Virus record (IMG/VR): IMGVR_UViG_3300033047_000013
Coordinates: 1-54,689 of that record
Length of the DNA: 54,689 nucleotides
Origin: a virus
Lineage: Duplodnaviria; Caudoviricetes
Reading direction: 5' to 3' (one strand)
In this document: positions 1-54,689 of the stretch, one piece after another
Layout: every line of letters starts with the position of its first letter
Numbering within the stretch: position 1 is the first letter of the stretch
Notes under the pieces: model-generated
The model's database searches: none
What the model was told of the DNA's origin: nothing
Seen by the model: the letters and a program-made list of their open reading frames with translations, nothing else
Translations under genes and position numbers: made by a program

Positions 1-183
1 CTGCTGCTTATGCTGCTGATGCTGCTGCTTATGCTGCTGATGCTGCTGCTTATGCTACTGATGCTGCTGCTGCTGCTTATGCTGCTGATGCTGCTGCTTA
101 TGCTGCTGCTGCTCGTGCTGCTGCTGCTTATGCTGCTACTACTGCTGCTCGTGCTGCTGCTGCTTATGCTGCTACTGCTGCTG
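1..183 (+). repeat. Low-complexity triplet repeat (GCT interspersed with TAT/GAT/ACT/CGT)
   Basis: Seen directly. Confidence 0.95.
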
Positions 184-248
184 AACGAGAATTACAGCGG
201 AAGGACTTGATTGAAGCCTTTCCACCGCTTTTAACCCCGCCAGCGTAG
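3..248 (+). CDS. Ala-rich C-terminal part (AAYAADAAAY...AAERELQRKDLIEAFPPLLTPPA) of the gene that starts at 54378 and wraps across the window end
   Basis: The frame starting at base 3 is open to TAG 246-248. It matches the paralog tail at 1822-2121 and lies in the -1 frame relative to the N-terminal part if the junction is exact. Confidence 0.55.
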   Translation, partial: AAYAADAAAYAADAAAYATDAAAAAYAADAAAYAAAARAAAAYAATTAARAAAAYAATAAERELQRKDLIEAFPPLLTPPA

Positions 249-256
249 ACACCACC

Positions 257-279
257 ACCCCCATCAATGGAGACACTCA
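257..279 (+). repeat. 23-bp start-associated repeat ACCCCCATCAATGGAGACACTCA; identical copies at 257, 780, 1058, 1485, 2095, 2421, 2672, 2816, 54352
   Basis: Nine exact copies read by eye. Each ends 1-5 nt before an ATG and contains a GGAG SD. Confidence 0.95.
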
Positions 280-282
280 CCA

Positions 283-807
283 ATGCAAGTAACACTTACC
301 AGAGACCAAATGCAGACGGCTTTTTGTGTGTATTCTCACGCAATGGGCGGCGCGGTCGTGTTCCTGGGTATTTGCCAGATCAGAGACGTGTATAACGCGC
401 CTGATGCGCGTAACAACACGGAATGGGTTAAGATGACCGAGAACAACGCACAAGTGACCGTGACCGTCCTACACGCATCTGAGGACGCCAACGAATGCAT
501 AAATCACCGTTACAAACTGTTCAAAGAGCAAGGGACACCACTTTGCAATCAGCGCGGCCAATTTTACGGCAGCGTGTTGACACATGTAAAATGCATAGAG
601 ACGGGCGAGATTTTTGTATCGCAAGCGGATTGTGCGCGTGTGTTAGGGCTTAATAAGTCGCAATTATGCAATCATTTAAACCGTAATGCAGGTTTTAATT
701 CAGTAAAAGGCCGCACGTTCGAGAAATGTGCAGCACCATCAAACCAAGGCGCACACCCCTTCCAGCGTAGACCGCCACAACCCCCATCAATGGAGACACT
801 CACATGA
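283..807 (+). CDS. Hypothetical protein with C-terminal NUMOD1-like HTH DNA-binding motif
   Basis: VKCIETGEIFVSQADCARVLGLNKSQLCNHL motif; SD supplied by the repeat. Confidence 0.6.
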   Translation: MQVTLTRDQMQTAFCVYSHAMGGAVVFLGICQIRDVYNAPDARNNTEWVKMTENNAQVTVTVLHASEDANECINHRYKLFKEQGTPLCNQRGQFYGSVLTHVKCIETGEIFVSQADCARVLGLNKSQLCNHLNRNAGFNSVKGRTFEKCAAPSNQGAHPFQRRPPQPPSMETLT

Positions 808-1087
808 AAGTTCACACTATAGTAATTCGGAATAAATTGAATGGTAAATTCTTGAGTTTAACAGCAGGATATGACACATCATATGTTCGAGAAGGGGATT
901 TTATCGGAATGTTTGAATCGTTGTTGGTTGCTAATTACATTAGATCACAAATGACCAATAAGAACGATTACGAAGTTTATGCAACTGAAAGTGGTAAACC
1001 TATTCGACTAACCCCATCAAACCAAGGCGCACACCCCTTCCAGCGTAGACCGCCACAACCCCCATCAATGGAGACACTCACATGAAA
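736..1087 (+). repeat. Perfect 74-bp direct repeat (736-809 and 1014-1087)
   Basis: Identical text. It gives two adjacent genes the same C-terminus, PSNQGAHPFQRRPPQPPSMETLT. Confidence 0.9.
804..1085 (+). CDS. Hypothetical protein
   Basis: ORF with repeat SD and ATGA coupling. Confidence 0.7.
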   Translation: MKVHTIVIRNKLNGKFLSLTAGYDTSYVREGDFIGMFESLLVANYIRSQMTNKNDYEVYATESGKPIRLTPSNQGAHPFQRRPPQPPSMETLT

Positions 1088-1366
1088 ACCGATTCCCCTA
1101 TTTGCATTCAGTGCAGACCCGTCCAAGACGAAAAAGATTTATGCCCGTCTTGCAACCTAAGACTCGCTGCAATTCGTGCACAATCAAAACCATCTGTAAT
1201 TGAAAGTAAATTAACAGATGCAGAGAAATACCATCAGAATTGTTTACATGACCTACATGTTGAATATAGGCAAAAAGCTAAGGTTCACATAGACGCACTC
1301 AAAGAAATAGCATCATTAAGACCGCCTTTACCTGTATTTGTAGGAGTAAATCATGAGCAGAATTAA
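1082..1366 (+). CDS. Hypothetical protein with CxxC...CxxC zinc-ribbon motif
   Basis: CIQC and CPSC motifs; repeat SD. Confidence 0.65.
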   Translation: MKTDSPICIQCRPVQDEKDLCPSCNLRLAAIRAQSKPSVIESKLTDAEKYHQNCLHDLHVEYRQKAKVHIDALKEIASLRPPLPVFVGVNHEQN

Positions 1367-1514
1367 AGACTATTACTGGTGCAATAGATGTGACGGTATT
1401 CATAGCCATAGCATTTCATGTGCAGACCATCAACTCGAACAAGACGCACGATATAAAGCCTTGCCAGAACCGGACACCACAACAACCCCCATCAATGGAG
1501 ACACTCAATCATGA
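1353..1514 (+). CDS. Small hypothetical protein (53 aa, Cys/His-rich)
   Basis: Manual translation MSRIKDYYWCNRCDGIHSH...; AGGAG SD; stop overlaps the next ATG. Confidence 0.5.
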   Translation: MSRIKDYYWCNRCDGIHSHSISCADHQLEQDARYKALPEPDTTTTPINGDTQS

Positions 1515-2121
1515 CTAAAATAACATTAAAACAAGCGATCGAAGCGGACGCATGTAAGAGCGGCATAGCTTCAATGCGTAAACATCTCAAAAGCATCAAC
1601 ATGCCGGAAACCAGTACGTTTTCGATTGGTGACGTGGCAAAAGGTTGTGATGTTTCAGATGCTTTATGGTGTTTACGGTTCGTAAAAGACCGTAGAACAA
1701 TGATCGCCGCTATCATGCCAAGCGTGATTCGCGCCAGTAAACACACGTCCGATAAGCGAGTACATGAATGCATTAAAGCCCTTCAAGCATGGCTTGCAGG
1801 TGACGACACAATAGACCTCAAACTGCTTATGCTACTGCTACTGCTTATGCTGCTGCTGCTGCTTATGCTACTGCTACTGCTGCTAATGCTGCTGCTGCTT
1901 ATGCTACTGCTACTGCTGCTAATGCTGCTGCTGCTGCTTATGCTACTGCTACTGCTGCTAATGCTGCTACTGCTGCTCGTTCTGCTGCTCGTTCTGCTGC
2001 TTATGCTGCTGCTCGTTCTGCTGCTTATGCTGCTTATGCTGCTGAACGAGAATTACAACGTCAGGACTTGATGAAAGCCTTTCCACCGCTTTTAACCCCC
2101 ATCAATGGAGACACTCACTAA
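1511..2121 (+). CDS. Phage protein with Ala-rich repeat tail. The tail is in the -1 frame; the zero frame gives poly-Leu and ends at 2071.
   Basis: The N-terminus (AC..G...DALWCLR) resembles phage proteins that end in Ala-rich repeats and an ERExQ motif. The Ala frame ends in TAA overlapping the next ATG. Confidence 0.6.
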
Positions 2122-2447
2122 TGGAAGATTTTAACAAACGTATGAACGCTTCAATCGACCTGCTTGCTGAGATCGGCGAGACGGTACATGTCGCAACGCT
2201 TAAAGAAGCCATGAAACGACTGAACACCCCCAACAGCGTAGACGCCGACTCTAAACCTGGCGGGCTTGGTAAAGGTGTGGTGTGTGTCGAGACGGGTAAA
2301 GAGTACGAGTCGCAGCGTCAAGCATGTGTAGACCTTGGTGTGACACCTGCCGCACTATGCCACCATCTAAAAGGTCGGACAGGCTACAAAACAGTTCGCG
2401 GCTATACGTTTACACCTGTGACCCCCATCAATGGAGACACTCAGTAA
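2121..2447 (+). CDS. Hypothetical protein with NUMOD1-like HTH
   Basis: VVCVETGKEYESQRQACVDLGV, similar to the 283-807 C-terminus. Confidence 0.6.
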   Translation: MEDFNKRMNASIDLLAEIGETVHVATLKEAMKRLNTPNSVDADSKPGGLGKGVVCVETGKEYESQRQACVDLGVTPAALCHHLKGRTGYKTVRGYTFTPVTPINGDTQ

Positions 2448-2701
2448 TGTTAACACTTGATAAGAAACATACAGCGCGGATTGTGCGCAATGCTCGTAAA
2501 ACGCTTGGTTGGACGCAAAAGCGGCTTGGTGAAGAATTGCACATACACCTATGTACAATATCTAAAATAGAAACACCTTCACACAAGCAAACAATACGCG
2601 CATCTGACTTCATGTGGTTAATCAACAAAGCCATGTCCCGACCTCAACCAAAACCAATATTTTATAAATACACCCCCATCAATGGAGACACTCAGATATG
2701 A
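2447..2701 (+). CDS. XRE/Cro-type HTH protein
   Basis: RNARKTLGWTQKRLGEELHIHLCTISKIE; start placed at ATG 2447 after the repeat SD. Confidence 0.75.
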   Translation: MLTLDKKHTARIVRNARKTLGWTQKRLGEELHIHLCTISKIETPSHKQTIRASDFMWLINKAMSRPQPKPIFYKYTPINGDTQI

Positions 2702-2790
2702 CCGATAAATTAAAAGACGACCTGCACAGTGGATTTTGGCTCGCAGCTTTTATCACTGTATTCCTCTGTTATATTCTGTCTGGTGTGTGA
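2698..2790 (+). CDS. 30-aa single-TM peptide
   Basis: MTDKLKDDLHSGFWLAAFITVFLCYILSGV follows the repeat SD. Confidence 0.5.
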   Translation: MTDKLKDDLHSGFWLAAFITVFLCYILSGV

Positions 2791-2843
2791 CACCCCATCA
2801 GCGTAGACCACCACAACCCCCATCAATGGAGACACTCAGTAGC

Positions 2844-3438
2844 ATGACACGTAAAGACTTTAATCAAACTGGTGCACTGTCCACAACTAATGAATGGTTG
2901 ACCCCACCGGAGTTGATAGCCGCTCTCGGTGTGTTTGACTTAGATCCGTGTGCGCCACCACCTGAACGTAGACCTTGGAACACTGCGCCGCTTATGTACG
3001 ACGAGAGAATCGATGGACTTAAAACGCCGTGGATAGGTCGTGTGTTTTTAAATCCACCATACGGACCAAATACTTTCACATGGTTAAAAATATTGTCCGA
3101 ACATTCAGGGGGGGGGGATTGCTTTGATTTTTGCTCGCACTGATACAATCGGTTTTCACGCTGAGGTATTCGCAAAAGCTTATAGTATTTTCTTTTTTAA
3201 ATCGCGTCTGAAATTCAACGGGATAATATCGCAATTGGAATTAAACACACCAACCGAAGCAGTACGAAAACGGATAAAAGGTAAGACCTTGAACCGAATT
3301 AATGCTGATTACTCATGGTTCAAAGGTGACGCTGCAAACGCTCCAAGCTGTTTAATCTCTTACACTCATGACGATTCTCAAATTATAAACGATGCTTTTA
3401 ATCGCGGTGACATCAAAGGATGTCATGTAATTTTATAA
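2844..3438 (+). pseudogene. Phage DNA N6-adenine methyltransferase (Dam-like), frameshifted at a G10 tract (3108-3117)
   Basis: EWLTPP, FDLDPCA, DGL..PW, VFLNPPY motifs. G9 restores HSGGGIALIFARTDT and fuses the two ORFs. Confidence 0.8.
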
Positions 3439-3439
3439 C

Positions 3440-3739
3440 TCACTCGTCCCACATGATTAAAACTTCCGTTTGACCGTTATAAACATCTCTTTTGGCATCG
3501 ACTTCGTTAACCGTTCTGATTTCAAACCTTACATTGTCTCCAACTAATATAGAGAAAAATCCACCATTTTCATCGACATGGTGCGTTCGTGTTTGCAACC
3601 CTAAATCTGCTAAAGCCTTTAAAATGGGTATAGCTTTTTTATTCGCAACAAACTCACCGTTCCCAAAAGTTACAATTTCATGGTCTTTTGTCAATTCGTG
3701 ATGATGATTAACATGTTTATATTTATCCGAAGCTTTCAT
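3440..3739 (-). CDS. Hypothetical protein
   Basis: ORF abuts the primase stop. Confidence 0.65.
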   Translation of the reverse strand: MKASDKYKHVNHHHELTKDHEIVTFGNGEFVANKKAIPILKALADLGLQTRTHHVDENGGFFSILVGDNVRFEIRTVNEVDAKRDVYNGQTEVLIMWDE

Positions 3740-6130
3740 CTATTCATATCCCTGAGCACGACCGAATGCATTAATATCAGAAGTCCGGTCGATGTGATAC
3801 AACTCTGACTTTGATTCAGCACCTTCTTGAAAGTATGCACGCGGGGATCTACCGAGTGGTTTATATCCAAGGCTTTCACAAATATTACTCACTGCACGGT
3901 TTGATATGCGTTTCATTCCGAGTTCTTTGACGCGCCTATGGACGGCTAAACTGCTCACCCATCCGGCGCAGAACCCTGGTATAGCGTCTTCAACAGCATC
4001 ATATATCAATTGCTCCATTGGTGTCCGGCTAATCCTGATAGCTTCATCAGTGCTCGACGTGTGCGGTGCTCGCATAGGGATGTCACCGCGTTCAATCGGA
4101 TAATTCCATAGATAGTTGGCAATTATAGCCGTACCGTCCGCATCCATCCAATCGTATAATTCTTTGAAATATGCATCGTTCATTCCAAGTCGTATTAAAT
4201 CTTCATATGTTTGTATTTCGAGATAATATACAGCAAAACGGCGGTCATTTTTGGTCGTGGGAATGGCGTCTTTAAAGTTGGAAAAGAACCCCCAATTCGC
4301 CCAATTATCTTCAACCTCTTGGTCTTGACCCTTGGCCTGAACCTCAATTTCTTGCTCGGTTATCATTGGCTTGAGAACTTCGATCATATCGCGGCGGTCA
4401 TCGACTTTGATTTCATCTGCCAGAATGAACAATTTACCGCGCATCCAAGCATTGAATTTTGCACCACTGTCGGCCAAGTCTTTAGCGTTCGGGAAATGCG
4501 TATAAGACCTGCCAATGGAATGTCGTATAATGCGTTTGAACACACCTTTACCCGCACCCTGCTCCGATTGTAACAGCCAAGCCCAAGGAATTTTAAACCC
4601 TGGATATTTTACATTATGAGCAAGGTTGTCCAAGAAGTTTTTTTGGTCGGACTTATCCGGCATTATCAAATCTAAATGACGGTCGAATAGATAAGTGCTA
4701 CCTTCCACGCGCCGCACAATTTGCGGTTTATACGTGTTGATACCTTCCCGTCCGAGTTCATCTTTGATAATCTCACCGAAAGATTGGGACGGCATAAATC
4801 TTATATGGTCGGCCTTGGGAACCTGCCACAGCGTAGACCGCGTAGCGGCTTGCCAAGGCTCGTTGATAAGTTTACCGACCGAATCGATTATGAATTTCTT
4901 ACCGCCGAATTGTGCGTTAAATTGTGATGAATTTAAGAAGCGTACATCTTCGGTCAACATTTTACCAAGGTTGGTGACATAGGTGCATCCTTTAAACCAT
5001 TCCTTTTGTTCAAGGTCACTGAGGATTTCACCACTGCAATCCAACACAGGCGGTTTGCTCAAATCTGGTTGCTCTATGGTAACTGCACCTCGGCTGCATT
5101 GAATACCTTCCGGTGCTTCAACATCACCCATCGGCATAGCGGGAACAGATGGTGTGACAGCAGCTTTAGCTTTTTGTTCACCGAATAACATTTGAGCCTT
5201 AAGTGCGGGCGTCCGACTGACAATAGATTTCCAACCAAGTTCGGTTTCTCGTATGCTTTCCCAATGTTTCAGGTTTTCAGCAACATCATTGTCTTCATAT
5301 CCAGCGCACCACTGCGACCATAAATCATACATATATTCAGGTGTCGCCAGCGTAGACCCCGCTTGTTTGACAGCCGCCATAAGCGCAATCCACTCGCTGT
5401 GCTCTAAATTGTTCGGATCTGTGACTTGTAGAGCGTATATGAGCCATTCCAGTGACGGAGCCGCTAGGTCTGGTTCACCGAGTGGTTTACGGCTCCCTGC
5501 ACCTTCTATGACGTTCACAGCACCCAATGCTTGTTCAAGTGTGCTGACGTTATATTGGAAACCGTGTGCTGCAAGCGGGATAAACGTTACCATGTGCGGA
5601 TTGGTCGGGTCTTTTAAATGCAGTGTACCTGGAAGGCGCATGACGCGGGACGCATCTACAATGGATTTATCACCGTCGAACAGTTGACGTAATTTACGCT
5701 GTAATAATGTAAAGTATTCATTACCAGCGTAGGGTTCGACAGACCAATAAACGTGAAATTTGTTAGGGCTGGTCTGTACTGCAAAACTCGGTGCAGGTTG
5801 CCACTCGGTTGCGCGGTGATAATTCTGCAAAGCTGAGAGATTGTCCAAGTCGATATATTGTGCGCGAATACCAGAGACATTTTCAAGGCGGTAAATCGGT
5901 CTACCTCTGTCGTCTATTTTGTCACCGATCATATTTGCGTTAACAAACATGCCGTAACCTTGTTCCTGATATTGGACTATGGACGGCCAAACATCAGCGA
6001 GTAGACCGCGAAACGGTATAGCCGGAATGTCTTTTCTGACACCGTGAATAGCCCTAAAATCGACCACACTTGTTTCAGGTGGACCAACGAGCGCAGCTAT
6101 AAAAGCATATGATTGATTATAGTCTTGCAT
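3740..6130 (-). CDS. Primase-helicase (RepB-like primase, PriCT-2-like, DUF5906/SF3-like helicase)
   Basis: YIDLD, TSPNKFHVYW, RVMRLPGTLHLK; Walker A QGAGKG and ILADE. Confidence 0.85.
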   Translation of the reverse strand: MQDYNQSYAFIAALVGPPETSVVDFRAIHGVRKDIPAIPFRGLLADVWPSIVQYQEQGYGMFVNANMIGDKIDDRGRPIYRLENVSGIRAQYIDLDNLSALQNYHRATEWQPAPSFAVQTSPNKFHVYWSVEPYAGNEYFTLLQRKLRQLFDGDKSIVDASRVMRLPGTLHLKDPTNPHMVTFIPLAAHGFQYNVSTLEQALGAVNVIEGAGSRKPLGEPDLAAPSLEWLIYALQVTDPNNLEHSEWIALMAAVKQAGSTLATPEYMYDLWSQWCAGYEDNDVAENLKHWESIRETELGWKSIVSRTPALKAQMLFGEQKAKAAVTPSVPAMPMGDVEAPEGIQCSRGAVTIEQPDLSKPPVLDCSGEILSDLEQKEWFKGCTYVTNLGKMLTEDVRFLNSSQFNAQFGGKKFIIDSVGKLINEPWQAATRSTLWQVPKADHIRFMPSQSFGEIIKDELGREGINTYKPQIVRRVEGSTYLFDRHLDLIMPDKSDQKNFLDNLAHNVKYPGFKIPWAWLLQSEQGAGKGVFKRIIRHSIGRSYTHFPNAKDLADSGAKFNAWMRGKLFILADEIKVDDRRDMIEVLKPMITEQEIEVQAKGQDQEVEDNWANWGFFSNFKDAIPTTKNDRRFAVYYLEIQTYEDLIRLGMNDAYFKELYDWMDADGTAIIANYLWNYPIERGDIPMRAPHTSSTDEAIRISRTPMEQLIYDAVEDAIPGFCAGWVSSLAVHRRVKELGMKRISNRAVSNICESLGYKPLGRSPRAYFQEGAESKSELYHIDRTSDINAFGRAQGYE

Positions 6131-6855
6131 TATTTGTGAGCGCCCACACGACCTAACGCACTATAATAATAACCCGCGTCTTTCTCTATACAAATTGACC
6201 GACGATTTGTATTGATTGCTGCAATAGCAGTTGTGCCGGAACCTGAACAATTATCAAGAACCATATCACCTTCGTTGGTGTATGTTTTGATAAGGTATTC
6301 AAACAAATCTGCTGGTTTTTGTGTTGGATGGTCGGGTTTATTTACATGGTTGAAATGCTGTACGGTTCTCGGATAGCGTAAACCTTTGTTGTCGTTTCTG
6401 TTAGACTTATATTCGCCATAATTTCTGTTATTTGATTTGCCTGGTCTGGCTTTGTACGGTTCACCTATAACCATTTGCGGATTATAAACACACTGTTTGC
6501 GATAGAATACGAGTATGTTTTCGTGCGCTTTCATGGGTTGTTTTTTGCTATTGAGATGCCCAGTAGCTTTTGGTTTCTCCCATATCCATTCATATTTCAT
6601 GTATTTAATTTGTGAAGCACCGAGAACTTTATCAAACGGTGTTTGAGCAGTCAAAACAACAGCACCATTAGGTTTTAGAACACGCCAGTAATGTTTCCAA
6701 AGTGGTTCAAACGAGATAATTACGTCCCATTTATTTTGAGTTGTTCCATATGGTAAATCACATAGAACCATGTCTACCGACCCATCGGGAATACCCACCA
6801 TAACTTCTAAACAGTCACCGAGTAACATATTTTGACCTTGGACAATCATGCTCAA
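6130..6855 (-). CDS. DNA methyltransferase, N6_N4 family (beta class)
   Basis: DLPY, HPTQKP, VLDNCSGSGTT. Confidence 0.9.
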   Translation of the reverse strand: MSMIVQGQNMLLGDCLEVMVGIPDGSVDMVLCDLPYGTTQNKWDVIISFEPLWKHYWRVLKPNGAVVLTAQTPFDKVLGASQIKYMKYEWIWEKPKATGHLNSKKQPMKAHENILVFYRKQCVYNPQMVIGEPYKARPGKSNNRNYGEYKSNRNDNKGLRYPRTVQHFNHVNKPDHPTQKPADLFEYLIKTYTNEGDMVLDNCSGSGTTAIAAINTNRRSICIEKDAGYYYSALGRVGAHK

Positions 6856-7103
6856 TACTCCCCTTTAATCCATGCATCTATATCGGTTTTTCGATACCTT
6901 GGTGGTTTTGAACCAGGTATTTGAAGCACCGGAAACCGTCCATCCGTCTTCATGTTATAAAGCGTCCGCTTTTTGATGTTGGTTGCAAGCGCAATTTGTG
7001 TGAGAGTCATTGTTTCAATATTTATCATGCAGGTGGTATCAATGTTTAATCTATTTATGTCAATAAATATTTTGCACGTTTTTGCACATTTATCATTTGA
7101 CAC
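6852..7103 (-). CDS. AlpA/excisionase-like HTH protein (start may be downstream)
   Basis: MTLTQIALATNIKKRTLYNMKTDGRFP...RYRKTDIDAWI. Confidence 0.7.
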   Translation of the reverse strand: MSNDKCAKTCKIFIDINRLNIDTTCMINIETMTLTQIALATNIKKRTLYNMKTDGRFPVLQIPGSKPPRYRKTDIDAWIKGEY

Positions 7104-7114
7104 ATTGTTTGACA
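7097..7114 (+). promoter_or_regulatory. Conserved tandem-TTGACA promoter/operator TTGACACATTRTTWGACW; also at 36634(+), 44951-44968(-), 46720(+), 54318(+)
   Basis: Five near-identical copies, each upstream of a co-oriented gene start. Confidence 0.75.
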
Positions 7115-7272
7115 GGGGTTAGAGATGGTTTATGAAAAACAATGTAACAAATAGTTTTGATACTTTAATAAGGTTTCAACTTACGGCAATGGCTGCGACG
7201 GATGACATTAATAAACAAAAAATACAGAGAGAGATTAACAAATGACCATAAATGCTTCACGGAGCCTGACAA

Positions 7273-7425
7273 ATGATTAGTATATTAATTAACATAATTG
7301 GTTGCGTGTTGTGCATGTTAGGATTTATCTTAATGGGTAACAGTCGCATGGAAGCCGAACCATTTCTTGCATTTATTTTTGGGTTCATAGGTGCGATAGG
7401 ATGCATTATTTTAATATTAAACTAA
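7273..7425 (+). CDS. Small two-TM membrane protein (50 aa)
   Basis: Manual translation MISILINIIGCVLCMLGFILM...; GGAG SD. Confidence 0.5.
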   Translation: MISILINIIGCVLCMLGFILMGNSRMEAEPFLAFIFGFIGAIGCIILILN

Positions 7426-7434
7426 GGATAAATC

Positions 7435-8058
7435 ATGACCACCACACTCACAAAAGACATGCCCGTCCAATTCAACAACGCGGTCAGAACAGTCACAGTC
7501 AAATCAATTCCTAAAGAGATGTTTGACGAACAGGCTGAAAAACAATGTTTCAATTGTCACGGTGTATCACTTGAAAAAACTCATGAACTCGGTGGGTTCA
7601 CCGCTGTTGAAGCAATTTGTGTTCTTTCAAATGTCATAAGTTTAAGCATGTCATATGACGAAGCACACTTAATACTGGACGGTATGATTCGTCGGTGGGA
7701 ATCGCAGCAGACGATTGTTGCTGATTACGCTGAATCACACCGATTGCAAGCAGAAGAAATCGAAGAATTGCAACACATGTTGGATCACCGAGATAAAACA
7801 CTTGACATGGTTCGGTTGGGCATTGCTAAACATGTTTTACCGAGTTTGATTGGACCACTCTCTAAAATAGCTTTTAGTGACCCGTCTAATGAGAGCGTTG
7901 CCAAAGAAGCCCTCAGATACGCAGATGCTTTAATTGAACAAGGAAAAACCAATGACCAAAAACAAAACACGTACACCAAAACCTGTCGATACTCATGTTG
8001 GATTACGCATTCGGATGCGCCGACAAATCATGAAAATGAGCCAAGAAGTGCTTGGTGA
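7435..8058 (+). CDS. Hypothetical protein
   Basis: AAGGA SD; 3' end overlaps the XRE gene. Confidence 0.6.
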   Translation: MTTTLTKDMPVQFNNAVRTVTVKSIPKEMFDEQAEKQCFNCHGVSLEKTHELGGFTAVEAICVLSNVISLSMSYDEAHLILDGMIRRWESQQTIVADYAESHRLQAEEIEELQHMLDHRDKTLDMVRLGIAKHVLPSLIGPLSKIAFSDPSNESVAKEALRYADALIEQGKTNDQKQNTYTKTCRYSCWITHSDAPTNHENEPRSAW

Positions 8059-8359
8059 CATGCTTGGTATAAGTTTCCAACAGGTACAAAAATACGAGAA
8101 AGGCATGAACCGTGTCAGCGCGTCTCGTTTGTGGGAAATGTCCAAAGCTTTAAAAGTTCCGGTGCAATACTTCTATGAAGGTTTGCAATATGACGGAAAA
8201 TTAAAAACTATAGATGCCAAGTCGGACGCAACGGGTATTCTCATAGAGGAATTTATTGACAGCCATGACGGTATCAAATTTCTAACATCTGTGTCAGGTA
8301 TCAAAGACAAAGCAATCCGGCAACAGGTTTTAGACCTCGTTAGAGCGTTGTCGTTATGA
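7952..8359 (+). CDS. XRE-family transcriptional regulator (alphaproteobacterial type)
   Basis: VDTHVGLRIRMRR...SQEVLG...SFQQVQKYEKGMNRVSASRL. Confidence 0.9.
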   Translation: MTKNKTRTPKPVDTHVGLRIRMRRQIMKMSQEVLGDMLGISFQQVQKYEKGMNRVSASRLWEMSKALKVPVQYFYEGLQYDGKLKTIDAKSDATGILIEEFIDSHDGIKFLTSVSGIKDKAIRQQVLDLVRALSL

Positions 8360-11849: not shown

Positions 11850-12106
11850 CTCATGACTTCCATAGCCAAACCGTTCGCTTCATATGTTTTTGTGTTGGAA
11901 GTGAATGTATGTGTATCGGTCGAATCTTTTAGAGACATTACAGCTATCATTTTATCAGGTTTCAATTCTCCGTTATCTATCATTCGCAAAATATTTATGA
12001 GCATTTCACGCGGAGAAATATCTTCTGAATTATTAGATTTACCTGCACGTATTTCACCCAAACTAACAGGTTCTTTCGTAAAGTCTTTGTCATTTATATC
12101 ATCCAT
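11846..12106 (-). CDS. Hypothetical protein
   Basis: Coupled ORF. Confidence 0.6.
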   Translation of the reverse strand: MDDINDKDFTKEPVSLGEIRAGKSNNSEDISPREMLINILRMIDNGELKPDKMIAVMSLKDSTDTHTFTSNTKTYEANGLAMEVMR

Positions 12107-14823
12107 TTGTCATTCCATCCTTCTACGGTTGCTGCTAGTTTTTCCATTTCTACGCGCGATAATGTCATAGCAGTGAGGACATCGACCTGCGCTGTCAAAT
12201 AAAATCTTCTGTACGATTCTTGGTCTGCACGTCCGAGATGTTGCTGTATTCCAGCCCATTGATTGATTGCAACGGTCAAGCGTTGTTGCGCTTGGTGCTT
12301 CTCAATCTGTCGGTTTACATGACCCTTAGCGGCGTAGACCGGAACACCAGACGCCGCAATCCTCTGACCGACTGACATAGGGCTTTCCAAGATAGCCGCT
12401 TGCATCATTTGTGCGATTGTTTCCCTGTCCATAAGTACCAAATCACCATCAACATGCTCTATGGAACGCGCTGCGCCCATCGGAACAGGTTCGTGACCAC
12501 AGTAAGGGCAAACGGCGTGAAACTTCTCATACGGGCGTGAGCAGCCACGACAAGCGGTTAAAGGTATGTCTTCGGGGTCTGGTTCACGCTTCCCGCGCTT
12601 CTCGCGCCTATCAAGCGTCCAAATGTGTGCTTTGTCGGGAAATCCGTGACGTTTCCAATTGCTCACATGGTCGATAATCAGGCCGTATAGTTTACCTTCC
12701 ATGAGCCTAAGAGCACGACCGAATTGCTGCAAATAGACACCGAGAGATGCAGTAGGTCGAGCCATGATGACAACTTCAACGGCGGGGCAGTCAAATCCTT
12801 CACCGAACAGATCCACATTAACCAATATTTTGATTTTATCTTCCCTGAACTGGCGAATGTGGTGTGCTCGTGTCTCTGCTGGTGTTTTTGCAGATATGGA
12901 AACCGCATTAATTCCAGCAGCTTTAAACTGTTCAGCAATTTTACCAGATGTTTCAACATCAGTAGCGAAACATATTGCCCGTTTGCCGGATGCCAATTTG
13001 ACATATTCGTCTACCACATTTCCGACAATGTGTGATTTCTCGGACGCCATTTTCATCTTTTGACGACTGTAATCGCCCGTAGCAGTCACCGCCGAATCAT
13101 CAATTATGAAATCTGTTTCAGGTATGGCAATTTGATAATCGGACAGTGAACCCATTTCGATCAGTTGTCGCATGGTCGGACCTGTCACCATTTCGTCATA
13201 CAAACCATCGTGGTGACGACCAAGACCCTGACCGTCCGCTCTCTGTGGTGTGGCTGTCACGCCGAGACCGTTGGCGTTCTTGAACATGTTTGCAACTCGA
13301 CCCCATTTATTAGGTGTCGTATTCCATACGGTTTCAGGCGTTTGACTTATAACTGCGCCAATGGCGTGATGACCTTCATCAATTGTCCAATCATCAATCT
13401 GTTCAGCCCAATCTTTAAGTTCGGCACGTCTTGCCCAAATCGTATCGACACCGCCGACACTACAATTTGATGTAGGATCTACAAAGTTCCGACCGAACTC
13501 GCGACGATGGTCTTGTCTGATCGCGTTGATGACATTCTTTGGTGCGATAATCCGGTGCTTGATGCCGCGTTGTGCTATGTGCATTGACATTTGACTGACT
13601 AGTTCGGTTCTATGAGCAATGACACACTGCGTTGCACCGAGCATGTGTTTGTCGAGCACGATGTCAGAAATTACGACAGAGTTGTGAACAACCGTGAAAT
13701 CAGCAAGCAAGAATAAACTATCATTACCCTGTACTTCAAACCCAAAATATTCACCAACACCAACAGGTTCAACAGAGATGCCAACATTCAATACATTTTT
13801 CTTCTGTTTGCGTGGACGTGCTTTTTTACGTTCTAAAATGCAGGGTATTTTTTCTATATTTCCTGATATTACACACCTAAAGTAAGTTCCTACGACTCCG
13901 TTATTCACACAAGTTTTGGATACTTTTCTTTTATATGCGCTGAACCCAAGCGACCGAGCAACAAATATTAAATCATCTAACAGTTTTTCGGATTTCAAAC
14001 AAATGTCATAACCTTTACCAGTGTAATAACCGTCTGAATCCATTAAACCTGCAAGAAGTTGCAACCTTTGTTTTTCCGATGCTGTTTTGTAATTGTGAGG
14101 TATGTGCTTATTTCGGTATAGGTTTTCACATTTTAAAAACTTCAACAATGGATTGTTACGTGGTTGTTTTCCAATAATGTTAACTGTTTGCGCTTTATTG
14201 TTTGGCTTTCTTGCAAAGGAGCATTTCAAACCAACCTTTTCAGCATATTCGATTAAATATTCCACAATAGGAGCGTCCTTTGTGGTTACTGCTGTATTCC
14301 GCGCAGTTCCATCACCGAGCCATAAACCGAGCCAATACGGATCATATTGTAAATCTTGCGGTGTTTCAAAGTTTACACCACTGCGCCAACCTTTGTGAAC
14401 ATGTTTGAAATTTTTAGATTTATTAATATATTCTTTAACGGGAATGTTTACAATGGAACCACCTAATTTTTGACAAGGATATTTCGGTTTGCTTCTTAAA
14501 TTAGTCATCCTAAGAGATAAAACATGCTCTGAATTTACGATATAAGAAGCACCTTTTACAGGGGTAATCTCATACATTTGATCCATACCAGAATGGAGAT
14601 TAACAACTTTTCTGGTTTTACCATCTGGTCCCATGACATGTTCACCAACCGTAATTGTTTCAACGGTTTTAACAGTGCCGTCATGCATCAAAACTTCCGT
14701 ACCACGCTTGAAACACTTACCCCCACCTGTCGGGAGCACCATCAGGACGTTTTTATGACCTGCGTTCCAAGAGTTATAAATACCTTGTTTGAGATCGGCT
14801 TGATATGGTCTGAGAATTATCAT
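12094..14823 (-). CDS. SF2 DEAD/DEAH-like DNA helicase containing an intein
   Basis: LRPYQ, PTGGGK/S, IDEGHH, VTATP, EGFD, QQFGRALR, C-terminal zinc finger. Confidence 0.92.
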   Translation of the reverse strand: MIILRPYQADLKQGIYNSWNAGHKNVLMVLPTGGGKCFKRGTEVLMHDGTVKTVETITVGEHVMGPDGKTRKVVNLHSGMDQMYEITPVKGASYIVNSEHVLSLRMTNLRSKPKYPCQKLGGSIVNIPVKEYINKSKNFKHVHKGWRSGVNFETPQDLQYDPYWLGLWLGDGTARNTAVTTKDAPIVEYLIEYAEKVGLKCSFARKPNNKAQTVNIIGKQPRNNPLLKFLKCENLYRNKHIPHNYKTASEKQRLQLLAGLMDSDGYYTGKGYDICLKSEKLLDDLIFVARSLGFSAYKRKVSKTCVNNGVVGTYFRCVISGNIEKIPCILERKKARPRKQKKNVLNVGISVEPVGVGEYFGFEVQGNDSLFLLADFTVVHNSVVISDIVLDKHMLGATQCVIAHRTELVSQMSMHIAQRGIKHRIIAPKNVINAIRQDHRREFGRNFVDPTSNCSVGGVDTIWARRAELKDWAEQIDDWTIDEGHHAIGAVISQTPETVWNTTPNKWGRVANMFKNANGLGVTATPQRADGQGLGRHHDGLYDEMVTGPTMRQLIEMGSLSDYQIAIPETDFIIDDSAVTATGDYSRQKMKMASEKSHIVGNVVDEYVKLASGKRAICFATDVETSGKIAEQFKAAGINAVSISAKTPAETRAHHIRQFREDKIKILVNVDLFGEGFDCPAVEVVIMARPTASLGVYLQQFGRALRLMEGKLYGLIIDHVSNWKRHGFPDKAHIWTLDRREKRGKREPDPEDIPLTACRGCSRPYEKFHAVCPYCGHEPVPMGAARSIEHVDGDLVLMDRETIAQMMQAAILESPMSVGQRIAASGVPVYAAKGHVNRQIEKHQAQQRLTVAINQWAGIQQHLGRADQESYRRFYLTAQVDVLTAMTLSRVEMEKLAATVEGWNDKWMI
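13681..14715 (-). mobile_element. Intein (345 aa) with LAGLIDADG homing endonuclease, inserted in Walker A
   Basis: GGGK|CFKRGT...VVHN|S; LGLWLGDG and LAGLMDSDG motifs. Confidence 0.92.
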
Positions 14824-15185
14824 ATTTTAATTTTGCAGTCGAGCCGATCACTTACTTTATTGAATTTATTTACGACACATTCTTCCAAAGACGTACCATG
14901 TTTTTGTGCAAGTAAATCTAGGTACGCCAATACATCCCCTATTTCGTCGCACAATTGGTTTTCTAAATCCTCTTTAGATTTACCCATGTTTGCAACTTCA
15001 AAACCGTCTCTGATGCGATTGAGTTTCTTTATGACATCACAAACTTCTCCGGCTTCGCCCGCCATTGCCACACCCCAATCAGATAAAGACCAAGCACTTA
15101 AAGGGTGATTAAACCCTTGTTCGCAACGTAATAAATTAATATCCGCAAATTGTTTAAATGTTAATTCAGTCATCTCAATGTCCAA
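14820..15185 (-). CDS. MazG-like nucleotide pyrophosphohydrolase
   Basis: AGEAGEVCDVIKK...DEIGDVLAYL. Confidence 0.85.
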   Translation of the reverse strand: MDIEMTELTFKQFADINLLRCEQGFNHPLSAWSLSDWGVAMAGEAGEVCDVIKKLNRIRDGFEVANMGKSKEDLENQLCDEIGDVLAYLDLLAQKHGTSLEECVVNKFNKVSDRLDCKIKI

Positions 15186-15946
15186 TCGTTTTTAGTTGAA
15201 GATTTATAAATTTGGGTAGGTTCGTCAGGTGTTTGTGTCTCACTCCATAATCGCCCACAGGCTTTTAAATAATACGCTTCGTCTAATTCCACAGCTTTAA
15301 ATCTGCGTCCCGACCTGATAGCTGCGAGCGCCGTAGAAGCGGTTCCGGCGAACGGGTCAAATATGATGTCACCACTCTTTGTGCTTTGCTCAATGTAATG
15401 TTGCACCAATCTAACAGGTTTTTCAGTAGGGTGTGTTTTGTCACCACTGTAAACAGGTGGACAGAAATAGATTTGCGACTGACCACAATCATTTATCTTA
15501 ATGGCGGGTTTGTTATAAAACATACAGACCATTTCAGTTTCCATCATGTAGAAACGGTTCGCATTCTTACGACCTTTACCCCAAAATAACATATTCGTAA
15601 GGTGAAACTTATTGTCGTGCGCCGCGTTGAGCAATGCTCTCAAAGTGATGCGGTTGGTCATAATATAACAGTGACCACCAGGTTTCAGAACACGGCTCAA
15701 TTCAGGTAAATAATCGGACGGTTTGATGTTGTTGTGTTTGAATATTTTACCGTCATTTTTATGCAGTGAACTAGCGTCCCAACCGTATTTACGACCCGCT
15801 TGGCTCGTTACACCACCGCTTACCGTTTTATAAGGCGGGTCTGTAAAAACCATATCCACTGAATCGTCGGCCATTTCCGCCATGACTTGCAGTGCATCAC
15901 CGTTAATTATTTCACCGTTTGGAAATATCATTTCAGTTTGCCCCAC
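15170..15946 (-). CDS. DNA methyltransferase, N6_N4 family
   Basis: TDPPY, HPTEKP, FDPFAGTAST. Confidence 0.9.
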   Translation of the reverse strand: MGQTEMIFPNGEIINGDALQVMAEMADDSVDMVFTDPPYKTVSGGVTSQAGRKYGWDASSLHKNDGKIFKHNNIKPSDYLPELSRVLKPGGHCYIMTNRITLRALLNAAHDNKFHLTNMLFWGKGRKNANRFYMMETEMVCMFYNKPAIKINDCGQSQIYFCPPVYSGDKTHPTEKPVRLVQHYIEQSTKSGDIIFDPFAGTASTALAAIRSGRRFKAVELDEAYYLKACGRLWSETQTPDEPTQIYKSSTKNDWTLR

Positions 15947-36615: not shown

Positions 36616-36688
36616 TTTATTCTTGACTCCTATTTGACACATTGTTAGACATATGTTATACATTTAGCAATATAAAAATGATGGAACA

Positions 36689-46708: not shown

Positions 46709-46778
46709 TTAATAATTATTTGACACATTATTTGACATATGCTAGATAATGGATGAAATCAAATGAAAGTCAAATATT

Positions 46779-49094: not shown

Positions 49095-49799
49095 CTATCC
49101 AAGTAAAGCAGCATACGCATCGGCTGCGTCCGCTACGCTTGATTTATCTGTTATAGCGGTTGGACGGCGCTGTGATTGATCAAAATGTAGATTCTCAGGC
49201 TCTACGATACCCATATATTTAGCCAACATCTCAATCGCCTTCAATTTATCATGCGTCACAATCTTAACCCGCCGACCCTTTTTTACATCCTCTATATGCT
49301 CCCACGACTTAAGAGCCGCCAGTTGCTCCGGCGTACACGCTGTAAAATCATACTCAGGAATACCCCATTCATTAATCTTAAAGTAGTCCGACAAATTAGA
49401 AAACGCTATGGTCGTCAACTCCTTAATAACCCTCTGTACCGACAACTCAGCATTCGCCGCCAACTCATTGACTCGCTCGGTTATAGCAGCCTTCACCATC
49501 GGACGCTCAAGAAGCCCTCTCGACTGTTCCATGACAGAGCGGGAGATGGGTCGATACAATGCATTGGAAATCCGGTCATTGCGCTTATGAGCATCACGCT
49601 CAAGATGCGTCACATACCCGTCCACAAACGACCTCTCGGACGGGGTGAGTTGTTTATAGGCACTCAGCAGCGCGAGAGTGTTGGACGGGGTGAGTTGTTT
49701 ATAGGCACTCAGCAGCGCGAGAGTGTTGGACGGGGTGGTCGCTCCGTTGAGGGTGGTCGGTGCGGGTGATGCTTCCGTATGTGTCAATGAATTGGTCAT
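49095..49799 (-). CDS. terS: Terminase small subunit
   Basis: LTPSERSFVDGY, LLERPMVKAAI, RVIKELTTIAFSN, DKLKAIEMLAKYMG. Confidence 0.85.
   Translation of the reverse strand: MTNSLTHTEASPAPTTLNGATTPSNTLALLSAYKQLTPSNTLALLSAYKQLTPSERSFVDGYVTHLERDAHKRNDRISNALYRPISRSVMEQSRGLLERPMVKAAITERVNELAANAELSVQRVIKELTTIAFSNLSDYFKINEWGIPEYDFTACTPEQLAALKSWEHIEDVKKGRRVKIVTHDKLKAIEMLAKYMGIVEPENLHFDQSQRRPTAITDKSSVADAADAYAALLG
49638..49737. repeat. Perfect 45-bp tandem duplication (2.2 copies) in terS
   Basis: TPSNTLALLSAYKQL occurs twice. Confidence 0.9.
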
Positions 49800-52151: not shown

Positions 52152-53067
52152 GATGTGAGCCTTTTGTAAGTTATTCGTTTTCCATCGCTCATTTGCAACA
52201 ATGAGTCCATTCGTGCGAGTGTGTGTCTTTTAACGTCACCCTCATTCAACCTAAAAGTAAATTCGTTTATATATCTGCCCAAGTGTTTTGGGCTGGCGTG
52301 GTGGTAAACCCCGTGAAGCCCACGCTTCATAACGGCGAAAACGCTTTCAATACCATTTGTTGTAACATTGTCGCGAACATATTCACCTGCACTATGATTG
52401 ATGCTCTCATGCGTGTAAAACAACCCTCCAATCGGATTGTAAATAGGGCTTTCGTCTGTAAAAATGGTTGTGTTGGGTTTGATGTGTTTCAAAGCAAAAC
52501 CTAAAGCGTTTCGGCCGGTGACAGGTTGAATTACCTCTGCTTTTACTCGACCCCCGCGTTGGCGAGCGGCAATGACGGGTGTTTTTCCGATCGTTCCGCG
52601 ACCTCTTTTTTGTTTTTTACTTTGTGTTTTGCTCCCTCTTTGCCGCCAATGTAAACTTCATCAATTTCTACAATTCCGGACAACTGGTGTGGATCATCAC
52701 CACATGCCTCACGCAATCTTTGCAACATAAACCACGCGGTTTTTTGTGTGACACCTAATTGTTTTGATAACTGAACACTGCTTATCCCCTTTCGGGCAGT
52801 GACAAAAAGATACATTGCATAGAGCCATTTATGCAATCCAACCTTACTTCTCTCAAAAACTGTATTTGTTCTAACGGTAAATACTTTTAAATCTGCATTG
52901 CATTTATAATACCCCTCGCCTCGGGAATATATCCGTTCTTTTTCTCCACAATGCGGACAGACCACCCCGTCCGGCCAGCGGCGATCTTCCATGTATAACC
53001 GTGCAGTTTCTTGGTCAGGAAACATCTCGAAAAGTTCAAATGTTGATATAGTAGATTTACTCATCAC
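52148..53067 (-). CDS. IS1595-family DDE transposase split by one -1 frameshift near 52605-52625
   Basis: CPHCG zinc ribbon, VEIDEVYIGG; -1 frame KRGRGTIGKTPV...FTDE...INHS...TNGIES...YINEFTFR. Confidence 0.85.
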
Positions 53068-53383: not shown

Positions 53384-53868
53384 TATATATAACCCTCCAA
53401 ATCTTCACCAATAATATTAATTACGGCTGATAGGTCTTGACCTTCCCAAACAAAATCAACATCCGCCCCACCCGTTTGAGCGCGACCCGTCCAATCTGAA
53501 CCTAGGTGGTGGTCAGAAATTCTAACAACAATGTCATTAAATCTTATGTACAGACTGGTATTTTCATTGTGCGTAATCTTCCAGCCCAATTTCTTAGACA
53601 GCCGACGCACCGCCCGCATAATCCTTAGATAATTTGCATCGGCGTTAAGCATTTTCAACGCATTTGTCGCAACACCGCAATGATCGTCATATCCGCAATT
53701 AACTACAAATTCGATAGCTTCGTTTTCGGTCAAGTTACGAACAGGCACGTGGTCACAGCAGTCATCACCGCCCTCACAATCATCTTCGTGGTATAAATAG
53801 TCATTGTCTGTCAGAAAAACGCAGTTGCTGCCAGCCGACCATATTGTATATGTTATGGATTTTGTCAT
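53383..53868 (-). CDS. Acidic hypothetical protein, IS passenger
   Basis: ORF downstream of an inward TTGACT promoter in the right IR; SLY...VRISDH motif. Confidence 0.65.
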   Translation of the reverse strand: MTKSITYTIWSAGSNCVFLTDNDYLYHEDDCEGGDDCCDHVPVRNLTENEAIEFVVNCGYDDHCGVATNALKMLNADANYLRIMRAVRRLSKKLGWKITHNENTSLYIRFNDIVVRISDHHLGSDWTGRAQTGGADVDFVWEGQDLSAVINIIGEDLEGYI

Positions 53869-54001
53869 TTTAAAACTCTCTTTTAGTTTTGTGCGGTGAG
53901 CCAATCTCTCCGTCTATAACTATTGTATACGCTTTCTAAATTCGAAAGTCAAGTATATAATTCCCTAAATTTAACCACTGAGCAAATAGAGAGGACTCGC
54001 A

Positions 54002-54193
54002 ATGACTAACGAACAAAACAAAACACTAACTAAATTGAATGTTATATGTGACTTTGTGCAAAATAATAAACCAAATGAATCGGACAAAGCGCGCTGGCAA
54101 CATTATATAAATGTTAAAACCCTTTTGACGGATATGCGCACAAATTTATTTAGTCAAATAAAACCAGAAGCGGGTTTATTGGATTTAATGTAA
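54002..54193 (+). CDS. Hypothetical protein
   Basis: GAGGA SD. Confidence 0.6.
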   Translation: MTNEQNKTLTKLNVICDFVQNNKPNESDKARWQHYINVKTLLTDMRTNLFSQIKPEAGLLDLM

Positions 54194-54377
54194 TATTATA
54201 ACATAACATCTGATTTGCAACCGAAAATTGCAAAAATGACCGATTCAGCCCAAAATTGCACACCCCTTCGGCGTAGACGCCGGAACCCCTTCCAGCGTAG
54301 ACCCCCACATTTAATACTTGACACATTATTTGACTATGTTATGATAATTTAACCCCCATCAATGGAGACACTCAACT

Positions 54378-54689
54378 ATGACTAAAATAACATTAAAACA
54401 AGCGATCGAAGCGGACGCATGTGAAAGCGGTATAGCTTCAATGCGTAAATATCTCAAAAGCATCAACATGCCGGAAACCAGTACGTTTTCGATTGGTGAC
54501 GTGGCAAAAGGTTGTGATGTTTCAGATGCTTTATGGTGTTTACGGTTCGTAAAAGACCGTAGAACAATGATCGCCGCTATCATGCCAAGCGTGATTCGCG
54601 CCAGTAAACACACGTCCGATAAGCGAGTACATGAATGCATTAAAGCCCTTCAAGCATGGCTTGCAGGTGACGACACAATAGACCTCAAA
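54378..54689 (+). CDS. N-terminal 104 codons of the paralog of the 1511 gene; continues across the window end
   Basis: Only 4 substitutions seen versus 1511-1822; promoter and 23-bp repeat upstream. Confidence 0.8.
   Translation, partial: MTKITLKQAIEADACESGIASMRKYLKSINMPETSTFSIGDVAKGCDVSDALWCLRFVKDRRTMIAAIMPSVIRASKHTSDKRVHECIKALQAWLAGDDTIDLK

Follow-up and report, generated by a model that had tools for sequence, protein, structure and literature searches.

The closest counterparts of the sequence reported here are the start-associated sequences (SAS) of Cluster K mycobacteriophages. These are 13 bp long, occur in 11–19 copies, all in one orientation, and lie 3–7 bp before the mostly ATG starts of non-structural genes; roughly half are accompanied by an extra motif upstream, and a role in translation has been proposed for them (PMC3203893). 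Papers are cited in this text by PubMed Central number. We describe here a 23-nt element, ACCCCCATCAATGGAGACACTCA, that heads nine early genes of a tailed virus (Duplodnaviria; Caudoviricetes), IMG/VR record IMGVR_UViG_3300033047_000013. ‘The window’ refers to the whole of this record, 54,689 bases (CheckV completeness 100).

The element is like SAS in being a short, asymmetric repeat that is present in many copies, in one orientation, a few nucleotides before ATG codons. It, too, has a Shine–Dalgarno (SD) core, precedes non-structural genes, overlaps the stops of upstream genes and is joined in a subset of cases by a second motif. It differs in length (23 versus 13 bp), in sequence and in lineage; all of its copies are identical, they belong to a single operon with the first at the start of the transcript, and part of the element is antisense to a CRISPR repeat. 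The SAS consensus of the Cluster K genomes, GGGATAGGAGCCC, is not matched by it (PMC3203893). The accompanying motifs differ as well: here it is a direct, strand-polar, non-palindromic octamer, GCGTAGAC, whereas the extended start-associated sequence (ESAS) is a 17-bp imperfect inverted repeat found at about half of the sites (PMC3203893). The element works like SAS, then, yet is not a member of that group, since sequence and lineage differ.

Other systems resemble it in single respects. The termination upstream ribosome-binding sites (TURBS) of caliciviruses are eukaryotic and pair with 18S rRNA. As in TURBS, a motif at the end of the upstream open reading frame (ORF), beside an overlapping stop and start, would hold the ribosome; the pairing available to the element is that of an ordinary 4-nt SD. 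Stoperators are repressor sites that occur throughout the genome, independently of start codons. Those of Cluster A mycobacteriophages share with the element its asymmetry, its single orientation relative to transcription and its place at gene boundaries (PMC3203893). Three features described below were absent from the initial annotation of this DNA: the antisense CRISPR core, the strand-polar upstream motif and the continuation of the array across the ends of the record.

The element and the early operon

Nine copies of the 23-mer were found when both strands of the window were scanned with up to three mismatches. All nine are exact and on the + strand, starting at 54352, 257, 780, 1058, 1485, 2095, 2421, 2672 and 2816. 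No further copy was found at that threshold on either strand, and none of 100 dinucleotide shuffles of the window gave a match. A scan of the same record with up to two mismatches likewise returned nine forward matches, no reverse matches, and none for a control query written backwards. The initial annotation had listed nine exact copies and none elsewhere, each ending 1–5 nt before an ATG, and both statements hold: the gap to the ATG is 1 nt at two copies, 3 nt at six and 5 nt at one. When the copies are aligned with 50 nt of flank, exactly 23 columns are invariant and no nearly invariant column lies beyond them; the unit has sharp edges. The ends of the record fall within the tandem-repeat region of one gene, A1, and the array is therefore one continuous block, from 54352 across the ends to 2838. 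In Logan contigs of a public seawater-metagenome run, all junctions across the eight copies within 200–4200 are found again; this run may be the source sample, and so amounts to a second assembly rather than an independent sample. The repeated element is real, and highly non-random.

Every copy contains the tetranucleotide GGAG 8–12 nt upstream of an ATG (9/9). At a similar distance from the start, many of the phage's other genes have AAGGA, GGAG or GAGG, which argues that the host uses SD-led initiation. The three G residues of GGAG are the only ones in the element, the rest of which is a C/A-rich stretch. The inverted repeat CCAT-CA-ATGG (4+4 bp) noticed earlier is indeed present, though as RNA the element alone folds weakly (–1.4 kcal/mol). 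The five element contexts folded all did no better than shuffled controls (z +0.27 to +1.57), and a stable RNA hairpin at the element was rejected on account of these folds. An Rfam search matched a tRNA and nothing else.

All nine copies are confined to one rightward early operon. A sigma-70-like promoter at 54318–54345, the sole promoter-like match in 53800–54689, ends 6 nt before copy 1. Transcription starting 6–8 nt past the –10 element would begin at the first base of copy 1, and the predicted 5′ untranslated region (UTR) of gene A1 is accordingly copy 1 plus 3 nt. In 1–7500, promoter-like matches are not above those in shuffles and none lies at any copy; promoters at the individual copies are thus unsupported, and we rejected them. 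The operon promoter lies within one member of a promoter-like repeat family with a doubled TTGACA (7095–7126, 36632–36663, 46718–46749 and 54316–54347), which probably marks the promoters used by the host polymerase. The features of the operon are as follows (HTH, helix-turn-helix; all on the + strand).

54271..54302, +: two copies of GCGTAGAC just upstream of the promoter (starts 54271 and 54295)
54318..54345, +: sigma-70-like promoter, TTGACA-16 nt-TATGAT with an upstream TG (11/12 matches)
54352..54374, +: element copy 1, which accounts for all but 3 nt of the predicted 5′ UTR of A1
54378..54689, +: gene A1, N-terminal Imm5-like/YdhT_N-like domain, running off the record end (phrog_18326; an Atlas lead)
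1..248, +: gene A1 continued, Ala-rich repeats and a tail ending ...ERELQRKDLIEAFPPLLTPPA; frame –1 with respect to the N-terminal domain
243..250, +: upstream motif GCGTAGAC, within ACCCCGCCAGCGTAGAC; contains the TAG stop of the A1 Ala-rich frame
257..279, +: element copy 2, exact
283..807, +: gene 283, C-terminal NUMOD-like HTH, paralog of 2121–2447; reads through copy 3 to a stop that overlaps the following start (ATGA)
736..809, +: 74-nt perfect direct repeat, copy a, comprising upstream motif, element copy 3 and the start of the next gene
780..802, +: element copy 3, exact
804..1085, +: gene 804, an ORFan cassette between the two 74-nt repeats; no family found
1014..1087, +: 74-nt perfect direct repeat, copy b, from the repeat comparison
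1058..1080, +: element copy 4, exact
1082..1366, +: gene 1082, ORFan with a Cys-rich N-terminus (ORF and family scan)
1353..1514, +: gene 1353, small Cys-rich ORF; reads through copy 5, and its stop overlaps the next start
1485..1507, +: element copy 5, exact
1511..2121, +: gene A2, a paralog of A1 in which frame 0 ends at 2071; the –1 frame, Ala-rich, continues through copy 6 as far as a TAA overlapping the ATG at 2121
2095..2117, +: element copy 6, exact
2121..2447, +: gene 2121, NUMOD-like HTH (PF22083, E 3.3e-5, below the curated cut-off); reads through copy 7; internal GCGTAGAC at 2236
2421..2443, +: element copy 7, exact
2447..2701, +: gene 2447, Xre-type HTH (HTH_3, E 1.6e-4, just below the cut-off); reads through copy 8
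2672..2694, +: element copy 8, exact
2698..2790, +: gene 2698, hydrophobic ORFan of 30 aa, from the ORF list
2801..2808, +: upstream motif GCGTAGAC before copy 9, from the motif scan
2816..2838, +: element copy 9, exact
2844..3438, +: Dam-like DNA methyltransferase, last gene of the operon (phrog_111 on both halves); two frames, split at a G10 run, 3106–3115
3407..3426, +: terminator-like hairpin and T run at the operon end, from a hairpin search

The copies thus head the A1 and A2 paralogs, the three HTH genes (283, 2121 and 2447), three ORFans (804, 1082 and 2698) and the Dam-like methyltransferase. At the copies at 780, 1058, 1485, 2421 and 2672, the stop of the upstream ORF overlaps the next ATG, as ATGA or TAATG, and the copy at 2095 is a sixth such case if A2 is read in its Ala-rich frame. 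It had been claimed that upstream genes traverse the element in two different frames, and the ORF ends confirm it: 283–807 and 804–1085 finish in ...PPSMETLT, and 1353–1514, 2121–2447 and 2447–2701 in ...TPINGDTQ(S/I).

A few peculiarities of these genes deserve mention in their own right. In both A1 and A2 the N-terminal domain and the Ala-rich tail lie in different frames, the tail being –1, after ...GAC CTC AAA, and the differences between the paralogs are synonymous in the Ala-rich frame. In three A homologs (P0001–P0003, 191–206 aa) the same domain is fused in frame to an Ala-rich tail, with ends resembling ...LQ..DL...FPP. A programmed frameshift could account for the split, as could a 1-nt indel common to both paralogs or an error of assembly. 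For the G10 run of the methyltransferase gene, the choice lies between a sequencing error in the homopolymer and a tract that is phase-variable.

With modest confidence, we read the element as a portable 5′ leader and ribosome-binding module that serves nine early cistrons and provides them with a common post-transcriptional handle, cassette exchange being a by-product. The anatomy set out above is good evidence that it provides the initiation region. Its other 19 bases would be recognized by a putative trans-acting factor, because perfect identity over 23 nt, with sharp edges, exceeds the needs of an SD. On this reading, host RNA polymerase would transcribe a single early operon from the near-consensus sigma-70-like promoter, and the transcript would open with copy 1. 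Ribosomes terminating at an upstream gene would be held by the SD within the element and re-initiate there, so that all of the early proteins would be made from one standard initiation region. The element could also act as a common handle, by which one trans-acting RNA or protein would switch the whole early set on or off post-transcriptionally. Switching of early mRNAs at this level is familiar from RegA and RegB of phage T4. Finally, with 23 identical nucleotides (74 in one pair) flanking genes, exchange between copies would duplicate or delete single, expression-ready genes; we read such exchange as a consequence of the repeats, and not as the reason for their existence.

Several observations weigh against the leader reading. 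SD and spacing alone fall short of explaining 23 invariant bases, and gene 1353, alone in the array, has no element of its own. No RNA runs carrying this stretch of the phage were listed. A 17-nt antisense match to a CRISPR hairpin, taken up in the next section, is not something that a leader would foretell. Nor does the repeat recur in the closest relatives found. The nearest named phages are Rhizobium phages P106B and RHph_X2_24 (Rigallicvirus), which are 47–48% identical in the primase, 61–63% in the large terminase subunit (TerL) and 63–68% in the capsid protein; an IMG/VR search added one primase fragment, 55% identical, that is without the early region. No gene-heading repeat was found in the early regions of the two Rigallicvirus phages or in the IMG/VR fragment, megablast of 1–4200 against phages gave no close relative, and tblastn with the A domain gave none either.

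A match to type III-B(v) CRISPR repeats

When 241 million metagenome records were scanned with an 18-mer of the element, 14 loci were found. Twelve are single, chance-like matches, and two (L013 and L019) are CRISPR arrays of 51 and 32 copies, respectively, of one 36-nt repeat, with spacers of 34–50 nt and the 17-mer at one end of the repeat. Read on the phage mRNA strand, element nucleotides 2–18 match, without exception, the reverse complement of nucleotides 1–17 of this repeat. The transcribed orientation of the repeat was set as GTCTCCATTGATGGGGGCAAACAATTGAATGGAAAC because motifs shared between leaders, the degeneracy of the last repeat, the orientation of the cas genes and the published Synechocystis CRISPR3 RNAs indicate it, and two further loci of the same family (L033 and L038) agree; the phage mRNA strand is therefore antisense to the repeat. 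The 17 complementary nucleotides are the entire 5′ hairpin of the repeat, which has a folding energy of –9.2 kcal/mol, against –36.1 kcal/mol for the duplex of element and repeat. Three variants in the repeat family keep a hairpin at the same place with a different sequence. Nothing in the phage corresponds to the 3′ half of the repeat.

Locus L019 opens with an array whose repeat is related. The genes csx18, cas1 and cas2 come next, then a leader with motifs in common with that of the first array, and finally the matching array, which is interrupted by an insertion sequence (IS) and closes with the degenerate last repeat. In all (1329–8252), this cyanobacterial contig has two type III-B(v) arrays with different 5′ hairpins and similar leaders, csx18-cas1-cas2 between them, and an IS transposase in the second. 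The wider family, GTCT-N20-TTGAATGGAAAC, is represented by 23 loci in species genomes; one is titled ‘uncultured bacterium’, and the other 22 titles name organisms that we take to be cyanobacteria. Genes for Cmr2/3/4/6, Csm6 and Cas1 lie beside the family arrays at L038 and L033. The metagenome arrays fit this type III-B(v) family: a 36-nt repeat, a hairpin from nucleotide 1–2, an AU-rich 3′ part ending ...GGAAAC, Cmr genes and no cas6 (checked in 12–24 kb). Microcystis DR3, of the same repeat family, is listed as III-B (PMC4428289). Synechocystis CRISPR3, which is type III-Bv, lacks Cas6; RNase E recognizes the 5′ stem-loop of its repeat and cuts in the AU-rich part downstream (PMC12464536). 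To judge from the synthetic RNAs in the supplement of that paper, the CRISPR3 repeat follows the same pattern as the array repeat (PMC12464536).

From these observations an antisense anti-CRISPR might be proposed, in which the leader doubles as an anti-repeat against the type III-B(v) repeat hairpin. This would be compatible with leader function, and we regard it as possible rather than probable. Each early transcript would present nine sites that pair with repeat nucleotides 1–17 and open the RNase E hairpin, so blocking or misdirecting the maturation of CRISPR RNA (crRNA), or inviting cleavage of the duplex, and lowering immunity—a scheme that we hold only tentatively. In its strongest form, which we find equally doubtful, the antisense of the host's own CRISPR hairpin would be built into every early leader, and the first and most abundant transcript would carry nine anti-repeat sites that suppress crRNA maturation. 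Two arrays of 51 and 32 repeats among just 14 loci, csx18, cas1 and cas2 adjoining one of them, a direction that makes the phage mRNA the antisense strand, a match that coincides with the whole hairpin, and the folding energy of the duplex all speak for the idea. So do the almost wholly cyanobacterial titles of the family loci, the Cmr genes beside the arrays, and the recognition of just such a 5′ hairpin by RNase E where there is no Cas6 (PMC12464536). The setting also fits an anti-defence island, the early operon being made up of small ORFans, Imm5-like proteins and HTH genes.

Known non-redundant CRISPR repeats number 17,823 (PMC10651486). Scaling that figure 10–100-fold for metagenomes, we arrive at a rough chance of 10^-3 to 10^-2 that a 17-mer would match some CRISPR repeat, and at about a tenfold lower chance still that the match would start at nucleotide 1 of the repeat; these are estimates with no computed control, and other striking matches would also have caught our attention. 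Both estimates count for the anti-repeat proposal. On balance, the 17-nt antisense match may or may not be a coincidence.

Several points stand against the proposal. The nearest named relatives of the phage infect Rhizobium and Sinorhizobium (Proteobacteria), cyanophage Pam3 comes only to 49.5% identity in TerL, and Atlas leads for the tailspike, which are leads only, point to Pseudomonadota. The octamer HIP1 (highly iterated palindrome 1), GCGATCGC, is absent from the phage, as against 0.5–0.9 per kb in the contigs with the arrays and in cyanobacterial loci. The capsid protein found a single weak match, of 25% identity, in 401 sampled genomes of the cyanobacterial phylum. Tetranucleotide correlations with the phage (r 0.13–0.47) did not separate cyanobacterial loci from unrelated ones. 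The exact 36-nt repeat is absent from 185,579 species genomes. No spacer, whether among 80 from L013 and L019 or among 571 unique spacers of the family, matches the phage beyond 15 nt exactly or 19 nt with one mismatch, and searches of the arrays against named phages gave no match.

The fit between element and repeat is imperfect as well. The invariant block is 5 nt longer than the complementarity, and its first nucleotide (A) does not pair with nucleotide 18 of the repeat (C). A second array at L019 has a different hairpin, and a site for that one is missing from the phage. In no other viral contig do several complements of the commonest hairpins of the family occur: searches with the complements of the commonest others gave 0, 0 and 3 matches in viral contigs, all single. 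Blocking the maturation of new crRNA would, besides, leave existing complexes armed. Neither the 23-mer nor the 18-mer has an exact match in other viral contigs, and the 17-mer occurs there at three chance-like loci. One of these, L050, is an unrelated, high-GC contig in which the 17-mer, CCCCCATCAATGGAGAC, stands 8 nt before an ATG within a 94-nt tandem duplication (2995–3190); it is probably there by chance, and shows that the sequence can serve as the context of a ribosome-binding site elsewhere. Two further loci, L012 and L015, match the element at 21 of 23 nt and were set aside, the match lying within a coding region. The anti-tag GTTTCCAT occurs four times on the + strand of the phage and once on the – strand, which is not striking.

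Phage-borne matches to CRISPR repeats are already known, as RNA anti-CRISPRs (Racrs) and solitary repeat units (SRUs). The element is like them in occurring early, near candidate anti-defence genes, with a proposed disturbance of the biogenesis of crRNA–protein complexes (PMC10651486). Racrs, however, are full-length sense mimics that are solitary, have their own promoter and bind Cas6 or Cas7, whereas the element is antisense, present in nine copies in mRNA leaders, and has pre-crRNA as its proposed partner (PMC10651486). The Racr coverage rule asks for at least 90% identity over at least 90% of the repeat, or 50–90% for a partial match; the element covers 17 of 36 nt (47%), at 100% identity, and falls outside it. 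The operon strand is antisense to the repeat rather than sense, as in Racrs, and in place of one solitary, intergenic unit with its own promoter there are nine copies, five or six of them inside ORF ends, behind one promoter. By the rules of SRUFinder (at least 50% coverage, solitary, intergenic) the element would be discarded (PMC10651486). Among the matches listed in a literature search for phage-encoded anti-repeat RNAs, there were Cas9 guide mimics and none antisense to type III repeats; among those listed for solitary repeat units, there was no antisense anti-repeat. In type II and V systems, the anti-repeat of trans-activating CRISPR RNA (tracrRNA) is encoded by the host and promotes maturation, through RNase III and Cas9. 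It and the proposed anti-repeat would both pair with the repeat part of pre-crRNA; tracrRNA differs in being host-encoded, in promoting maturation and in belonging to other CRISPR types. Were the proposal true, antisense RNA anti-CRISPRs would exist within mRNA leaders, and a Rigallicvirus-like marine phage would be a cyanophage.

Possible cassette exchange and operator binding

Some features fit exchange between copies of the element. A1 and A2 are 98% identical over 300 nt; the identity starts 1 nt before the element, and the duplicated stretch spans one element to the next. Where it ends, A2 passes from ...CTTTTA straight into the element, and A1 has an extra 23-nt unit there, ACCCCGCCAGCGTAGACACCACC, also starting ACCCC; A2 is without exactly this upstream-motif unit. 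Gene 804 is bracketed by the perfect 74-nt repeat (736–809 and 1014–1087), which gives two unrelated proteins the same 23-residue tail. The unitigs of run X1 have the following depths.

736–809, 74-nt repeat: 152
780–1043, gene 804 cassette: 50
200–765, single-copy flank: 82
1058–1540, single-copy flank: 103
2672–4200, single-copy flank: 101

Values of 152 and 50 fit a population depth of ~102 in which ~49% of genomes carry the gene 804 cassette. This is a weak hint, because the depth is one figure per contig. A deletion within the 74-nt repeat creates no new k-mer and so could not show as a joint. Two apparent joints, 779>1484 and 2060>200, were rejected as deletions; they come from contigs of the A1 region (54285–54689 and 1–199) mapped on A2 and on a similar upstream motif. 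No deletion junction or circle was seen in the Logan contigs of run X1.

The stronger claim, that recombination is the primary function, would make the element a joint by which single genes are gained, lost and shuffled as cassettes, its position before starts merely ensuring that newcomers are expressed. We think this unlikely. The promoter-early-stem-loops (PeSLs) of T4-type phages set a precedent, being short conserved motifs between small, non-essential early genes that exchange can shuffle, with insertions, deletions and mini-circles as the outcome (PMC2839356). The PeSL unit, however, is a sigma-70 promoter plus a terminator stem-loop, and the copies of the element have neither (PMC2839356). 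Duplication boundaries at elements, the bracketing of gene 804 and the repeat-encoded tail on two unrelated proteins, depths that fit a presence/absence polymorphism and the preponderance of ORFans among the cassette genes all agree with the joint as primary function. Against it, 23 bp is short for efficient homologous exchange, and exchange alone would give ragged tracts of identity, not nine identical, sharp-edged blocks. The fixed distance of 1–5 nt to the ATG and the copy at the start of the transcript are better explained by translation. In integrons, an integrase acts on attC sites, imperfect palindromes of 57–141 bp at the 3′ ends of cassettes. Here, no recombinase or integrase family was found in the 40 ORFs scanned (Pfam), and the element is 23 nt long and barely palindromic. 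No junction or circle was seen, both apparent joints having come from mis-mapping of the paralogous A1 region, and the searches gave no close relative in which breakpoints could be mapped.

The initial annotation had offered a shared translational element or a recombination joint. The translational part fits the SD spacing, the ATG after all nine copies, copy 1 at the predicted transcript start, the unstructured contexts and the stop–start overlaps; the joint is supported indirectly, by the duplication boundaries, the 74-nt repeat and the depths, with no junction read.

A stoperator-like array, in which the HTH product of 283, 2121 or 2447 would bind nine double-stranded DNA sites, block RNA polymerase and shut the operon down, is the least probable reading: three HTH-type proteins are encoded within the array, the copies share one orientation at gene boundaries in the manner of Cluster A stoperators (PMC3203893) and contain a short inverted repeat, but the operon could be shut down by one operator at its only promoter, the sites go with start codons rather than with the promoter, and the inverted repeat is just 4+4 bp.

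Upstream motif, other features and significance

Four of the nine copies are preceded, at 25 nt, by the motif CAGCGTAGAC; the octamer GCGTAGAC lies ~15 nt before these four, and the motif has further copies nearby. Across the window the + strand has 15 such octamers, mostly in the form CAGCGTAGAC, and the – strand has none; ~0.5 would be expected per strand. Its starts are 243, 765, 1043, 2236, 2801, 4831, 5350, 11413, 12332, 17942, 24676, 31581, 39236, 54271 and 54295; seven of these cluster in the early region, and genes of either orientation contain the octamer. As a DNA signal it is strand-polar, and it may be Chi-like or packaging-oriented.

Elsewhere in the window, a 909-aa helicase (12094–14823, –) contains an intein near its N-terminus, with Hint and LAGLIDADG homing-endonuclease domains. 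The span of the ORF for the small terminase subunit (– strand) includes a perfect 45-nt tandem duplication, 49638–49727. A truncated IS1595-type transposase (52543–53067, –), comprising a zinc ribbon and the first 36 residues of the DDE domain, adjoins the early region. The phage encodes three DNA methyltransferases (2844–3438, 6130–6855 and 15170–15946), and two tetranucleotides are strongly under-represented in the window as a whole: GATC (73 seen, 204 expected) and GGCC (37 seen, 112 expected).

Knowledge of start-associated repeats dates from 2011 and comes from one group of mycobacteriophages, in which their role in translation is a proposal. The present phage is unrelated to these, and is a cleaner case—one operon, nine perfect copies, the first at the start of the transcript—which makes reporter and binding tests of the non-SD bases straightforward. 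On a small scale, the array illustrates from nature how single genes become cassettes, open to duplication and deletion, when an expression signal is repeated. Should the CRISPR match be real, the RNA anti-CRISPRs would gain a new class, antisense rather than mimic, and aimed at crRNA maturation that depends on a host RNase. In that event, the partial, multi-copy or antisense repeat matches that current SRU searches discard would be worth screening.

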